From the IMG/VR virus record IMGVR_UViG_2529293142_000008: a stretch of 16,588 nt of DNA; one strand, given 5' to 3'. The notes beneath the pieces are model-generated. The model saw only the letters and a program-made list of their open reading frames with translations. It did not search any database and was not told the origin of the DNA. A program made the translations under genes and the position numbers. This DNA comes from a virus. Its lineage: Duplodnaviria > Heunggongvirae > Uroviricota > Caudoviricetes. The stretch's first letter is position 1, and the number at the start of each line of letters is the position of its first letter. This document shows positions 1-6,358 of this stretch, one piece after another.

Positions 1-248
1 GTATGGCCATCGATGGTCTGAAAGAAGTACAGGAAGCGGTGATGCTGATAGAAGCCGGACTGAGCACCTACGAGAAAGAGTGCGCGAAACGCGGTGACGA
101 CTATCAGGAAATTTTTGCCCAGCAGGTCCGTGAAACGATGGAGCGCCGCGCGGCTGGTCTTAAACCGCCCGCCTGGGCGGCTGCGGCATTTGAATCCGGG
201 CTGCGACAATCAACAGAGGAGGAGAAGAGTGACAGCAGAGCTGCGTAA
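1..248 (+). CDS. B: portal protein gpB, C-terminal fragment (5' end outside window)
   Basis: ORF enters from the window start in the frame of ORF 3..248 and stops at 246-248. It sits immediately upstream of C and overlaps it by 20 nt, as B/C do in lambda. Confidence 0.8.
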   Translation, partial: MAIDGLKEVQEAVMLIEAGLSTYEKECAKRGDDYQEIFAQQVRETMERRAAGLKPPAWAAAAFESGLRQSTEEEKSDSRAA

Positions 249-1548
249 TCTCCCGCATATTGCCAGCATGGCCTTTAATGAGCCGCTGATGCTTGAACCC
301 GCCTATGCGCGGGTTTTCTTTTGTGCGCTTGCAGGCCAGCTTGGGATCAGCCGCCTGACGGATGCGGTGTCCGGTGACAGCCTGACTGCCGGAGAGGCAC
401 CCGCGACGCTGGCGTTATCCGTTGATGATGACGGACCACGACAGGCCCGCAGTTATCAGGTCATGAACGGCATCGCCGTGCTGCCGGTGTCCGGCACGCT
501 GGTCAGCCGGACGCGGGCGCTGCAGCCGTATTCGGGGATGACCGGTTACAACGGCATTATCGCCCGTCTGCAACAGGCTGCCAGCGATCCGATGGTGGAC
601 GGCATTCTGCTCGATATGGACACGCCCGGCGGGATGGTGGCGGGGGCATTTGACTGCGCTGACATCATCGCCCGTGTGCGTGACATAAAACCGGTATGGG
701 CGCTTGCCAACGACATGAACTGCAGTGCAGGTCAGCTGCTTGCCAGTGCCGCCTCCCGGCGTCTGGTCACGCAGACCGCCCGGACAGGCTCCATCGGCGT
801 CATGATGGCTCACAGTAATTACGGTGCTGCGCTGGAGAAACAGGGTGTGGAAATCACGCTGATTTACAGCGGCAGCCATAAGGTGGATGGCAACCCCTAC
901 AGCCATCTTCCGGATGACGTCCGGGAGACACTGCAGTCCCGGATGGACGCAACCCGCCAGATGTTTGCGCAGAAGGTGTCGGCATATACCGGCCTGTCCG
1001 TGCAGGCTGTGCTGGATACCGAGGCTGCAGTGTACAGCGGTCAGGAGGCCATTGATGCCGGACTGGCTGATGAACTTGTTAACAGCACCGATGCGATCAC
1101 CGTCATGCGTGATGCACTGGATGCACGTAAATCCCGTCTCTCAGGAGGGCGAATGACCAAAGAGACTCAATCAACAACTGTTTCAGCCACTGCTTCGCAG
1201 GCTGACGTTACTGACATGATGCCCGCGACGGAGGGCGAAAACGCCAGCGCGGCGCAGCCGGACGTGAACGCGCAGATCACCGCAGCGGTTGCGGCAGAAA
1301 ACAGCCGCATTATGGGGATCCTCAACTGTGAGGAGGCTCACGGACGCGAAGAACAGGCACGCGTGCTGGCAGAAACCCCCGGTATGACCGTGGAAACGGC
1401 CCGCCGCATTCTGGCCGCAGCACCACAGAGTGCACAGGCGCGCAGTGATACTGCGCTGGATCGTCTGATGCAGGGTGCACCGGCACCGCTGGCTGCAGGT
1501 AACCCGGCATCTGATGCCGTTAACGATTTGCTGAATACACCAGTGTAA
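229..1548 (+). CDS. C: head maturation protease / minor capsid protein C (S49 ClpP/SppA-like family)
   Basis: GTG at 229 preceded by GAGGAGAAG (221-228), in frame with ORF 94..1548. It gives 439 aa, the lambda gpC length. The 94 start of the ORF track is an upstream in-frame Met inside B and is unlikely to be the real start. Confidence 0.88.
   Translation: MTAELRNLPHIASMAFNEPLMLEPAYARVFFCALAGQLGISRLTDAVSGDSLTAGEAPATLALSVDDDGPRQARSYQVMNGIAVLPVSGTLVSRTRALQPYSGMTGYNGIIARLQQAASDPMVDGILLDMDTPGGMVAGAFDCADIIARVRDIKPVWALANDMNCSAGQLLASAASRRLVTQTARTGSIGVMMAHSNYGAALEKQGVEITLIYSGSHKVDGNPYSHLPDDVRETLQSRMDATRQMFAQKVSAYTGLSVQAVLDTEAAVYSGQEAIDAGLADELVNSTDAITVMRDALDARKSRLSGGRMTKETQSTTVSATASQADVTDMMPATEGENASAAQPDVNAQITAAVAAENSRIMGILNCEEAHGREEQARVLAETPGMTVETARRILAAAPQSAQARSDTALDRLMQGAPAPLAAGNPASDAVNDLLNTPV
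943..1548 (+). CDS. nu3: capsid scaffolding protein Nu3, nested in-frame in the 3' third of C
   Basis: Internal in-frame ATG at 943 shares the C stop at 1548 and gives 201 aa, the lambda Nu3 length. Nested C/Nu3 organisation is known for lambda. No clear ribosome binding site seen, so the start is by analogy. Confidence 0.65.
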   Translation: MDATRQMFAQKVSAYTGLSVQAVLDTEAAVYSGQEAIDAGLADELVNSTDAITVMRDALDARKSRLSGGRMTKETQSTTVSATASQADVTDMMPATEGENASAAQPDVNAQITAAVAAENSRIMGILNCEEAHGREEQARVLAETPGMTVETARRILAAAPQSAQARSDTALDRLMQGAPAPLAAGNPASDAVNDLLNTPV

Positions 1549-1557
1549 GGGATGTTT

Positions 1558-1908
1558 ATGACGAGCAAAGAAACCTTTACCCATTACCAGCCGCTGGGCA
1601 ACAGTGACCCGGCTCATACCGCAACCGCGCCCGGCGGATTGAGTGCGAAAGCGCCTGCAATGACCCCGCTGATGCTGGACACCTCCACCCGTAAGCTGGT
1701 TGCGTGGGATGGCACCACCGACGGTGCTGCCGTTGGCATTCTTGCGGTTGCTGCTGACCAGACCAGCACCACGCTGACGTTCTACAAGTCCGGCACGTTC
1801 CGTTATGAGGATGTGCTCTGGCCGGAGGCTGCCAGCGATGAGACGAAAAACGGACCGCGTTTGCCGGAACGGCAATCAGCATCGTTTAACCTTACCCTTC
1901 ATCACTAA
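1558..1908 (+). CDS. D: head decoration protein D, C-terminus altered by an apparent 1-nt deletion in an A-run
   Basis: ATG 1558 ([12 protein letters not shown]...). After the A5 run at 1846-1850 the +1 frame encodes [13 protein letters not shown] then TAA at 1887-1889, which would give the canonical 110-aa gpD. The observed frame instead reads [19 protein letters not shown] and stops at 1906-1908. Confidence 0.8.
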
Positions 1909-1910
1909 AG

Positions 1911-1931
1911 GCCGCCTGTGCGGCTTTTTTT
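1911..1931 (+). terminator. hairpin GCCGC-CTGT-GCGGC followed by T7, between D and E
   Basis: Read directly from the sequence. It lies inside the operon, so it is more likely an attenuator or mRNA-stability element than a full terminator. Confidence 0.4.
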
Positions 1932-1944
1932 ACGGGATTTTTTT

Positions 1945-2969
1945 ATGTCGATGTACACAACCGCCCAGCTGCTGGCGGCAAATGAGCAGAAATTTAAGTT
2001 TGATCCGCTGTTTCTGCGTCTCTTTTTCCGTGAGAGCTATCCCTTCACTACGGAGAAAGTCTATCTCTCACAAATTCCGGGACTGGTAAACATGGCGCTG
2101 TACGTTTCGCCGATTGTTTCCGGTGAGGTTATCCGCTCCCGTGGCGGCTCCACCTCTGAATTTACGCCGGGATATGTCAAACCCAAGCATGAAGTGAATC
2201 CGCAGATGACCCTGCGTCGCCTGCCGGATGAAGATCCACAGAATCTGGCGGACCCGGCTTACCGCCGCCGTCGCATCATCCTGCAGAACATGCGAGACGA
2301 AGAGCTGGCCATTGCTCAGGTCGAAGAGATGCAGGCCGTTTCTGCCGTGCTTAAGGGCAAATATACCATGACCGGTGAAGCCTTCGATCCGGTTGAAGTG
2401 GATATGGGCCGCAGTGCGGCGAATAACATCACGCAGTCCGGCGGCACGCAGTGGAGCCAGCGTGACAAGTCCACGTATGACCCGACCGACGATATCGAAG
2501 CCTACGCGCTGAACGCCAGCGGTGTGGTGAATATCATCGTGTTTGATCCGAAAGGCTGGGCGCTGTTCCGTTCCTTCAAAGCCGTCAGGGATAAGCTGGA
2601 TACCCGTCGCGGCTCTCATTCCGAGCTGGAGACAGCGGTAAAAGCCTGGGCAAAGCGGTGTCCTATAAGGGAATGTATGGCGATGTGGCCATCGTCGTGT
2701 ATTCCGGACAGTACGTGGAAAACGACGTCAAAAAGAACTTCCTTCCGGACAACACGATGGTGCTGGGGAACACTCAGGCACGCGGTCTGCGCACCTATGG
2801 CTGCATTCAGGATGCGGACGCACAGCGCGAAGGTATTAACGCCTCTGCCCGCTACCCGAAAAACTGGGTGACCACCGGCGATCCGGCGCGTGAGTTCACC
2901 ATGATTCAGTCAGCACCGCTGATGCTGCTGGCTGACCCTGATGCATTCGTGTCTGTACAACTGGCGTAA
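1945..2969 (+). pseudogene. E: major capsid protein E, frame interrupted by a 1-nt deletion near 2644-2645
   Basis: ATG 1945 (MSMYTTAQLLAANEQKFKFDPLF...). The N-terminal ORF runs to 2871 with an aberrant tail. The E C-terminus (SYKGMYGDVAIVVYSGQYVEN...FVSVQLA) is in the +1 frame as ORF 2658..2969. The span is 1025 nt against 1026 nt for 341 aa plus stop. Confidence 0.85.
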
Positions 2970-2971
2970 TC

Positions 2972-2998
2972 ATGGCCCTTCGGGGCCATTTTCTCTCT
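2972..2998 (+). terminator. hairpin ATGGCCC-TTCG-GGGCCAT (UUCG tetraloop) followed by TTTCTCTCT, just after the E stop
   Basis: Read directly. 7-bp GC-rich stem with a partial U-tract; candidate attenuator between E and FI. Confidence 0.35.
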
Positions 2999-3010
2999 GT
3001 GGAGGAGTCC

Positions 3011-3409
3011 ATGACGAAAGATGAACTGATTGCCCGTCTTCAGGTGCTGGGTGAGCAACTGAACCGTGATGTCAGCCTGACGGGGACGAAAGAAGAACTG
3101 GCACTCCGTGTGGCAGAGCTGGAAGAGGAGCTTGATGACACGGATGACGCTGCCGGTCAGGACACATCTCTCAGCCCGGAAAATGTGCTGACCGGGCATG
3201 AAAATGAGGTGGTATCAGCGCAGCCGGATACCGTGATTCATGATACGGCTGAACTGGTCACGGTAGTGGCACTGGTGACGCTGCATACCGATGCACTTCA
3301 CGCCACGCGGGATGAACCTGTGGCATTTGTGCTGCCGGGAACGGCGTTCCGTGTCTCTGCCGGTGTGGCAGCCGAAATGACAGAGCGTGGCCTGGCCAGA
3401 ATGCAATAA
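3011..3409 (+). CDS. FI: DNA packaging / head assembly protein FI
   Basis: ATG 3011 preceded by GGAGGAG. Gives 132 aa (MTKDELIARLQVLGEQLNRDVSLTGTKEELALRVAEL...). Acidic N-terminal half and position match lambda FI. Confidence 0.9.
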   Translation: MTKDELIARLQVLGEQLNRDVSLTGTKEELALRVAELEEELDDTDDAAGQDTSLSPENVLTGHENEVVSAQPDTVIHDTAELVTVVALVTLHTDALHATRDEPVAFVLPGTAFRVSAGVAAEMTERGLARMQ

Positions 3410-3420
3410 CGGGAGGCGCT

Positions 3421-3795
3421 GTGGCTGATTTCGATAACCTGTTCGATGCTGCCATTGCCTGCGCCGATGAAACGATACGCGGGTACATGGGAACGTCAGC
3501 CACCATGACATCCGGTGAGCAGTCCGGTGCGGTGATACGTGGTGTTTTTGATGACCCTGAGAATATCAGCTATGCCGGACAGGGCGTGCGCGTTGAAGGC
3601 TCCAGCCCGTCCCTGTTTGTCCGGACTGATGATGTGCGGCAGCTGCGGCGCGGCGACACGCTGACCATCGGTGAGGAAAACTTCTGGATAGACCGGATTT
3701 CGCCGGATGATGGCGGAAGTTGTCATCTCTGGCTTGGCGGGGGGGGACCGCCTGCCGTTAACCGTCGTCGCTTGAAAGGGGGGGTATGGCCATAA
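3421..3795 (+). CDS. FII: head-tail connector protein FII, apparent stop-codon loss extending it 7 codons into Z
   Basis: GTG 3421 preceded by GGGAGG (3411-3416). The first 117 codons end in ...PPAVNRRR at 3771, the canonical gpFII length. Codon 118 is TTG (3772-3774) where a stop is expected, and the ORF reads LKGGVWP to TAA at 3793-3795. Confidence 0.8.
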   Translation: MADFDNLFDAAIACADETIRGYMGTSATMTSGEQSGAVIRGVFDDPENISYAGQGVRVEGSSPSLFVRTDDVRQLRRGDTLTIGEENFWIDRISPDDGGSCHLWLGGGGPPAVNRRRLKGGVWP

Positions 3796-4364
3796 AAGGT
3801 CTTGAGCAGGCCGTTGAAAACCTCAGCCGTATCAGCAAAACGGCGGTGCCCGGTGCCGCCGCAATGGCCATTAACCGCGTTGCTTCATCCGCGATATCGC
3901 AGTCGGCGTCACAGGTTGCCCGTGAGACAAAGGTACGCCGGAAACTGGTAAAGGAAAGGGCCAGGCTGAAAAGGGCCACGGTCAAAAATCCGCAGGCCAG
4001 AATCAAGGTTAACCGGGGGGATTTGCCCGTAATCAAGCTGGGGAATGCGCGGGTTGTCCTGTCCCGACGCAGGCGTCGTAACAAGGGGCAGCGTTCATCC
4101 CTGAAAGGTGGCGGCAGCGTGCTTGTGGTGGGAAACCGTCGTATTCCCGGCGCGTTTATTCAGCAACTGAAAAATGGCCGGTGGCATGTCATGCAGCGTG
4201 TGGCCGGGAAAAACCGTTACCCCATTGATGTGGTGAAAATCCCGATGGCGGTGCCGCTGACCACGGCGTTTAAACAGAATATTGAACGGATACGGCGTGA
4301 ACGTTTGCCGAAAGAGCTGGGCTATGCGCTGCAGCATCAACTGAGAATGGTAATAAAGCGATGA
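3786..4364 (+). CDS. Z: tail assembly / tail completion protein Z
   Basis: ATG 3786 after a G-rich Shine-Dalgarno. Gives 192 aa, the lambda gpZ length, in the expected position. Confidence 0.9.
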   Translation: MAIKGLEQAVENLSRISKTAVPGAAAMAINRVASSAISQSASQVARETKVRRKLVKERARLKRATVKNPQARIKVNRGDLPVIKLGNARVVLSRRRRRNKGQRSSLKGGGSVLVVGNRRIPGAFIQQLKNGRWHVMQRVAGKNRYPIDVVKIPMAVPLTTAFKQNIERIRRERLPKELGYALQHQLRMVIKR

Positions 4365-4757
4365 AACATACTGAACTCCGTAGCAGCCGTACTGGATGCA
4401 CTGGAGAAGCATGACACCGGGGCGACGCTTTTTGATGGTCGCCCCGCTGTTTTTGATGAGGAAGATTTTCCGGCAGTTGCCGTTTATCTCACCGGCGCTG
4501 AATACACGGGCGAAGAGCTGGACAGCGATACCTGGCAGGCGGAGCTGCATATCGAAGTTTTCCTGCCTGCTCAGGTGCCGGATTCAGAGCTGGATGCGTG
4601 GATGGAGTCCCGGATTTATCCGGTGATGAGCGATATCCCGGCACTGTCAGAGTTGATCACCAGTATGGTGGCCAGTGGCTATGACTACCGACGCGACGAT
4701 GATGCGGGCCTGTGGAGTTCAGCCGATCTGACTTATGTCATTACCTATGAAATGTGA
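4361..4757 (+). pseudogene. U: tail terminator protein U, frame interrupted by a 1-nt insertion near 4382
   Basis: ATG 4361 (MKHTELR) runs into TGA at 4412-4414 after 17 codons. The rest of U (...[59 protein letters not shown]) is in the next frame and ends at 4757. The span is 397 nt against 396 nt for 131 aa plus stop. Confidence 0.85.
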
Positions 4758-4764
4758 GGACGCT

Positions 4765-5505
4765 ATGCCTGTACCAAATCCTGTAATGCCGGTGAAAGGT
4801 GCCGGGACCACCCTGTGGGTTTATAAGGGGAGCGGTGACCCTTATGCGAACCCGCTTTCAGACGTTGACTGGTCGCGTCTGGCAAAAGTTAAAGATCTGA
4901 CGCCCGGCGAACTGACCGCAGAGTCCTATGACGACAGCTATCTCGATGATGAAGATGCGGACTGGACTGCGACCGGGCAGGGGCAGAAATCAGCCGGAGA
5001 TACCAGCTTCACGCTGGCGTGGATGCCCGGAGAGCAGGGGCAGCAGGCGCTGCTGGCGTGGTTTAATGAAGGTGATACCCGTGCCTATAAAATCCGCTTC
5101 CCGAACGGCACGGTCGATGTGTTCCGTGGCTGGGTCAGCAGTATCGGTAAAGCGGTGACGGCGAAGGAAGTGATCACCCGCACGGTGAAGGTCACCAATG
5201 TGGGACGCCCGTCGATGGCAGAAGATCGCAGCACGGTCACAGCGGCAACCGGCATGACCGTGACGCCTGCCAGCACCTCGGTGGTGAAAGGGCAGAGCAC
5301 CACGCTGACCGTGGCATTCCAGCCGGAAGGCGCAACCGACAAGAGCTTCCGTGCGGTGTCTGCGGATAAAACAAAAGCCACCGTGTCGGTCAGTGGTATG
5401 ACCATCACCGTGAAAGGTGTTGCTGCAGGCAAGGTCAACATTCCGGTCGTATCCGGTAATGGTGAACTTGCTGCGGTTGCAGAAATCACTGTCACCGACA
5501 GTTAA
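4765..5505 (+). CDS. V: major tail tube protein V with C-terminal Ig-like domain
   Basis: ATG 4765 preceded by GTGAGGA. Gives 246 aa ([22 protein letters not shown]...), intact. The C-terminal Thr/Val-rich beta-rich segment fits the known Ig-like domain of gpV. Confidence 0.92.
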
Positions 5506-5520
5506 TCCGGAGAGTCAGCG

Positions 5521-5943
5521 ATGTTCCTGAAAACCGAATCATTTGAACATAACGGCGTGACCGTCACGCTTTCTGAACTTTCAGCCCTGCAGCGTATTGA
5601 GCATCTCGCCCTGATGAAACGGCAGGCAGAACAGGCGGAGTCAGACAGCAACCGGAAGTTTACAGTGGAAGACGCCATCAGAACCGGTGCTTTTGTGGTG
5701 GCGATGTCCCTGTGGCATAACCATCCGCAGAAGACAAAGCAGCCTTCCATGAATGAAGCCGTTAAACAGATTGAGCAGGAAGTGCTTACCACCTGGCCCA
5801 CAGAGGCAATTTCTCATGCTGAAAACGTGGTGTACCGGCTGTCCGGTATGTATGAGTTTGTGGTGAATGATGCCCCTGAACAGGCAGAGGACGCCGGGCC
5901 TGCAGAGCCTGTTTCTGCGGGAAAGTGTTCGACGGTGAGCTGA
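5521..5943 (+). CDS. G: tail assembly chaperone G
   Basis: ATG 5521, 140 aa, ends in ...SAGKCSTVS. The slippery heptamer lies 6 codons before its stop. Confidence 0.9.
   Translation: MFLKTESFEHNGVTVTLSELSALQRIEHLALMKRQAEQAESDSNRKFTVEDAIRTGAFVVAMSLWHNHPQKTKQPSMNEAVKQIEQEVLTTWPTEAISHAENVVYRLSGMYEFVVNDAPEQAEDAGPAEPVSAGKCSTVS
5919..5925 (+). other. programmed -1 ribosomal frameshift slippery heptamer GGGAAAG (G to G-T)
   Basis: Heptamer G GGA AAG read directly in the G frame near the 3' end of G. It is the known lambda G-T slip site. Confidence 0.8.
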
Positions 5944-6358
5944 GTTTTGCCCTGAAACTGGCGCGCGAGATGGGGCGACCCGACTGGCGCGCCATGCTTG
6001 CCGGGATGTCATCCACGGAGTATGCCGACTGGCACCGCTTTTACAGTACCCATTATTTCATGATGTTCTGCTGGATATGCACTTTTCCGGGCTGACGTAC
6101 ACCGTGCTCAGCCTGTTTTTCAGCGATCCGGATATACATCCGCTGGATTTCAGTCTGCTGAACCGGCGTGAGGCTGACGAAGAGCCTGAAGATGATGTGC
6201 TGATGCAGAAAGCGGCAGGGCTTGCCGGAGGCGTCCGCTTTGGCCCGGACGGGAATGAAGTTATCCCCGCTTCCCCGGATGTGGCGGACATGACGGAGGA
6301 TGACGTAATGCTGATGACAGTATCAGAAGGGATCGCAGGAGGAGTCCGGTATGGCTGA
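5919..6358 (+). pseudogene. T: tail assembly chaperone T (G-T frameshift extension), interrupted by a 1-nt deletion in a T-run near 6056-6058
   Basis: The -1 frame from the slip site reads VFDGELSFALKLAREMGRPDWRAMLAGMSSTEYADWHRFYSTHY and then hits TGA at 6093-6095. The rest of T (HFSGLTYTVLSLFFSDPD...IAGGVRYG) is in another frame (ORF 6077..6358), overlapping the H start as expected. Confidence 0.75.

Follow-up and report, generated by a model that had tools for sequence, protein, structure and literature searches.

In phage lambda, the tail terminator protein gpU ends polymerisation of the tail tube and renders tails competent for joining to heads. The gene that encodes it (U; NP_040591) lies between Z and V, and its start codon overlaps the stop codon of Z as ATGA. 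In the neck-tail structure of lambda, gpU forms a hexameric ring that sits between the stopper, gpFII, and the tail tube of gpV, with its O-loop (residues 25-37) binding gpFII and its E-loop (residues 45-58) binding gpV (PMC10721106). Here we describe a U locus in a 16,588-nucleotide stretch of viral DNA (IMG/VR record IMGVR_UViG_2529293142_000008; "the window" below refers to this whole stretch). The window contains the late morphogenesis block of a lambda-like prophage and is collinear with lambda and with E. coli prophages, its genes running from the end of B through C-D-E-FI-FII-Z-U-V-G-T-H-M-L-K-I-J-lom to the start of stf. The locus is an unexceptional ortholog of lambda U, and it sits where this tail terminator gene normally does in the late operon of a lambda-like prophage, between Z and V. 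It is a gpU gene by descent and synteny, but it does not encode gpU as written, owing to a single extra nucleotide near its start. Lambda and 30 related loci share this layout, with the start of U placed on the stop of Z.

Two relatives of the window serve as intact references. The prophage of E. coli A25 (NZ_CP028750.1) matches it over the full 16.6 kb, collinearly and at 96.6% identity, and AFDY02000111.1 (GCA_000225185.3) matches positions 1-6507 at 99.5% identity. Both have the same gene order as the window and carry full-length D (110 amino acids), E (341 amino acids), U (131 amino acids) and T (144 amino acids) genes, whereas the window has a one-nucleotide indel in each of these four. 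The 13 other complete genes of the window are intact, including H (853 amino acids) and J (1137 amino acids), and no IS element, large deletion, nonsense codon or nonsense substitution was found across the 16.6 kb. We considered whether FII might be a fifth damaged gene. An extra T at position 3772 removes its usual TGA, so that the reading frame (3421-3795) extends to 124 rather than 117 amino acids and then overlaps the start of Z. The same 124-amino-acid form is called in several complete E. coli genomes, however, and it is a common natural allele, not damage.

The features of the Z-U-V region are as follows.

3786-4364, plus strand: gene Z, 192 amino acids, intact, with its stop codon TGA at 4362-4364
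4361-4414, plus strand: the U frame as written, a 17-amino-acid peptide (MKHTELRSSRTGCTGEA) made of seven correct codons and ten out-of-frame codons and ended by TGA
4382, plus strand: the inserted A, in the context CGT-A-GCA, in codon 8 of U
4383-4757, plus strand: the intact body of U, codons 8-131 followed by TGA, shifted by +1 into the frame of Z and with no further lesion
4765-5505, plus strand: gene V, the major tail tube protein, 246 amino acids, intact, the downstream neighbour of U

The initial annotation had described U as interrupted by a one-nucleotide insertion about 21 nucleotides into the gene, and direct reading and translation bear this out. The ATG at 4361, which overlaps the stop codon of Z as ATGA, opens a frame that begins MKHTELR, runs on out of frame as SSRTGCTGEA and meets TGA at 4412-4414. 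No continuous open reading frame of about 131 codons runs from the authentic U start, since translation from it stops after 17 codons. The extra A at 4382 is nucleotide 22 of the gene and falls in codon 8. The span from 4361 to 4757 is accordingly 397 nucleotides long, as the annotation had it, in contrast to the 396 nucleotides expected from lambda and found there and in every relative. A comparison with lambda U had been proposed along with a prediction of its outcome. We ran it, and it gave ctccgtgcagccgtactgg in lambda and ctccgtagcagccgtactgg in the window, just as predicted; at the site itself, lambda reads ctccgtgcagcc and the window reads ctccgtAgcagcc, which becomes CTCCGTGCAGCC once the extra A is taken out. 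A whole-window alignment against the best-matching E. coli prophage likewise places a one-nucleotide insertion exactly at 4382. The inserted A lies outside any homopolymer, does not duplicate an adjacent base and has no methylation motif close by.

Beyond the insertion, the rest of a normal U protein was said to be intact in the next frame through 4757, and translation together with matches to Pfam and PDB confirms it. Frame 0 stays open from 4365 until it reaches TGA at 4755-4757, and it encodes gpU residues 8-131 from 4383 onwards. Its translation (4365-4754) matches the Pfam family PF06141 (Phage_tail_U) at 194.4 bits (E=1e-57; profile positions 8-130 of 130; the curated cut-off is 25 bits) and the PDB entry 1z1z at E=5e-78. 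All three solved gpU structures (1z1z, 3fz2 and 3fzb) are matched at E of about 1e-78. The matches to PF06141 and 1z1z show that the shifted frame is not a chance pattern of open reading frames. With the extra A removed, the gene encodes a protein of 131 amino acids that differs by one residue from the closest prophage alleles and by three from lambda gpU. Lambda U and the corrected gene both have 131 codons, are identical at 128 of 131 residues and share about 98% of their nucleotides, the three differences (F23L, A34E and D97E) being conservative allele differences. The difference that matters is the extra A in codon 8, which gives the window its 397-nucleotide span and, as written, its 17-amino-acid product.

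How common is this insertion? We aligned a 75-nucleotide query centred on it to 4,100 places spread over 2,996 complete E. coli genomes and to 86 phage records. The insertion was found at none of the 4,100 E. coli places and in none of the 86 phage records, and the best identity in each set was 74/75, the one difference being the gap. An exact 34-mer spanning the insertion had no match in GTDB (one genome per species), in IMG/VR or among JGI metagenome contigs. Where the window has GTAGC, each of the 27 fetched loci whose flanks match has GTGC, and a 131-amino-acid U is present in all 30 related loci (fetched by an exact match to Z, V or D). Exact-protein look-ups give the same picture from the protein side. 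The Z and V proteins of the window are widespread on record and always adjoin an intact U, whereas no record was found for the broken products of E, U and T, none for the exact J and H proteins of the window, and no second copy of the window's prophage. Among the phage records, MW057783.1 ("Campylobacter phage CJLB-4"; 48,361 bp) uses lambda gene names and matches the Z-U-V region at an identity equal to that of lambda; it looks like lambda DNA under a different deposited name.

The insertion in U has companions, which the initial annotation overlooked, along with the excess of indels over private substitutions described below.

1846-1850, plus strand: lesion in the head decoration gene D (1558-1889), a run of six A reduced to five in codon 97, giving a 116-amino-acid product with a changed C-terminus
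2644-2645, plus strand: lesion in E (gene 1945-2969), an A deleted (aaaag[A]cctgg) in codon 234, so that the frame ends at codon 309 of 341
6056-6058, plus strand: lesion in T (gene frame 5925-6358), a run of four T reduced to three in codon 44, so that the gpT/gpGT tail assembly chaperone frame ends at codon 57 of 144

Downstream of the indel, none of the four broken genes (D, E, U and T) shows further damage, and the G-T slippery site GGGAAAG at 5919 is intact. The deletion in E lies directly before a CCTGG Dcm site. None of 2,035 places in complete E. coli genomes carries it, and no copy in those genomes has the lesion in T either. The lesion in D behaves differently. We had considered it private to the window, but an identical 116-amino-acid D product occurs in 27 blocks of the public collection, from independent assemblies, which rules this out. 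The A5 alleles of D are flanked by GAC in the other assemblies and by GAT in the window. These differing SNP backgrounds indicate a recurrent allele at a homopolymer hotspot rather than shared descent.

The balance between private indels and private substitutions bears directly on the origin of these lesions. In an alignment of 22 sequences over 6.1 kb, the window has three private indels against six private substitutions, whereas 18 of its 21 relatives, with as many as 48 private substitutions, have no private indels at all. In the first 8.6 kb, the part of the window where close relatives exist, comparison with 22 loci gives only two private substitutions (both in FII) against four indels; the FII segment that holds them is a rarer allele, whose best match in complete genomes is 97.8%. 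Against the fetched loci, 33 of 35 private substitutions lie beyond position 8600 (8600-11500: the end of H, then M, L, K, I and the start of J), a region in which no indels were found. The distribution suggests that 8600-11500 is a mosaic segment that has been sampled less. The near absence of private substitutions from 1-8600 speaks against a uniform in-silico mutation of a real sequence, although deliberate placement of the indels is conceivable.

Only one sequence in the 22-sequence alignment exceeds the window in private indels, and it belongs to a near-identical pair that is likewise rich in indels. L027 (Logan ERR10114900) and L031 (Logan SRR30949717) represent the same prophage, assembled from independent runs, both with a short Z (81 amino acids) and a split H. 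They differ from each other by one mismatch and seven single-base indels in 7.3 kb, and L031 is the one that exceeds the window. At least one of the two therefore carries many indel errors, and their differences establish that indel-type assembly errors are present in public records of this prophage family. The pair shows near-identical DNA whose single-base indels are mostly deletions, inside and outside homopolymers, and fragment the late genes. While its two independent assemblies can be compared directly, no second copy was found for the window.

We consider, with a confidence a little better than even, that the extra A in U entered the sequence record as an indel error, along with three others in D, E and T. 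We favour this over a real, recently decayed prophage, inferring the technical cause from the pattern of the indels. The four would be of the kind left by long-read or homopolymer-prone assemblies, and the U gene of the underlying phage is probably intact. Homopolymer contractions and indels next to Dcm sites are typical of long-read error, and here two of the four indels shorten a homopolymer and a third borders a Dcm site. The same two contractions, however, are also the usual product of replication slippage, which is what one would expect if the mutations were real and the window came from a defective prophage whose late operon is gathering inactivating frameshifts (in D, E, U and T). U would then be a recent pseudogene and the element would make no functional virions; to this we give a somewhat less than even chance. 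Defective lambdoid prophages are common, and four essential or near-essential morphogenesis genes are frameshifted in the sequence as written. The only canonical in-frame restart in U, GTG at 4575, would yield a 60-amino-acid fragment lacking both the O-loop and the E-loop. The A5 allele of D, moreover, is found in several independent assemblies on public record, apparently clean in other respects, so that lesions of at least this type exist in nature. Several features of the four indels also fit poorly with error. Length is unchanged in the longest homopolymers of the window (G8, T7 twice, A7, and G7 twice), and because these would be expected to be affected first, they count against a strongly homopolymer-driven error. 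All four indels fall within the first 6.1 kb, leaving the other 10.5 kb free of them. Of the four, the insertion in U looks least like an error, lying neither in a homopolymer nor near a methylation motif.

Insertion of an A between T and G, on the other hand, is not a slippage product either, and the counts also weigh against decay. Neutral decay reportedly yields about ten substitutions per indel in E. coli mutation-accumulation studies, and in the window the private indels equal or exceed the private substitutions. Given this excess of indels over what the few private substitutions would predict, a record error is no less likely than a biological lesion. A cryptic prophage would show lesions of mixed kinds and accumulating substitutions; what we find are four one-nucleotide indels, with two to six private substitutions against three to four indels, and no secondary lesions, nonsense codons, IS elements or deletions in 16.6 kb. 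The window is thus without the hallmarks of a long-decayed cryptic prophage. In addition, the lesions in E, U and T are common to none of the thousands of sequenced copies, and neither the complete E. coli genomes nor the fetched relatives include a clonal relative that shares them.

Could the frameshift be real but bypassed during translation, so that some terminator activity is still supplied? We regard this as very unlikely, even though the reading frames are arranged in a way that invites the question. The body of U (4365-4757) is open in the frame of Z, the TGA at 4362-4364 is the only stop between them, and UGA is the leakiest stop codon in E. coli. Read-through at this codon is one conceivable route; the others are +1 frameshifting within codons 2-17 and a non-canonical start in frame 0 (ATA at 4368 or CTG at 4371). 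Programmed recoding would be marked by conservation and by a slippery codon context, and neither is found. The frameshifted arrangement occurs in no relative (0/4,100 E. coli places, 0/86 phage records, 0/27 fetched loci and no exact match in the three contig collections), and this lack of conservation gives no suggestion of a selected recoding site. None of the 17 codons in 4361-4414 lets a P-site tRNA re-pair in the +1 frame, the same interval has no CUU-UGA motif of the prfB type, and an Rfam search returned no known RNA element. Frame 0 has no ATG, GTG or TTG from 4365 until the GTG at 4575. Read-through is predicted to give a Z-U fusion of about 324 amino acids, and a U moiety fused to the 192-amino-acid Z would probably be unfit for the gpU hexamer ring. 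The capsid gene E is broken regardless. We conclude that the read-through arrangement of the Z and U frames is a by-product of the insertion, not a feature. It is extremely improbable, in our estimate, that a real extra A combined with occasional UGA read-through yields a Z-U fusion, or a low level of shifted product, and with it a trickle of terminator activity. If this were true, the read-through would be an accidental step towards a fused tail-completion and terminator protein.

To return to the reading that we favour, an error in the record, its consequences differ sharply from those of a real lesion. Translated as written, the locus is predicted to make no gpU, only a 17-residue peptide. 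If the lesion is real, the tail tube would go uncapped without gpU and tails could not join heads, and without gpE there would be no capsid. The initial annotation had stated that a true lesion in U would block virion assembly. Its conditional wording was well placed, as was its call for resequencing, but U would not be the sole block to assembly, because the major capsid gene E is also broken. With E, D and T broken too, the element as written would make neither heads nor tails.

For annotation, then, the lesion in U should not be taken in isolation but read together with those in D, E and T. None of this is of a new kind: gpU and its role are textbook knowledge, and both frameshifted prophage genes and assembly indels are routine. 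The biological significance is accordingly small, and the practical value lies in annotation. Real indels would mean a prophage that is dead on several counts, without capsid, decoration protein, tail chaperone or terminator. If they are errors, an inducible lambda-like prophage has probably been wrongly scored as defective.
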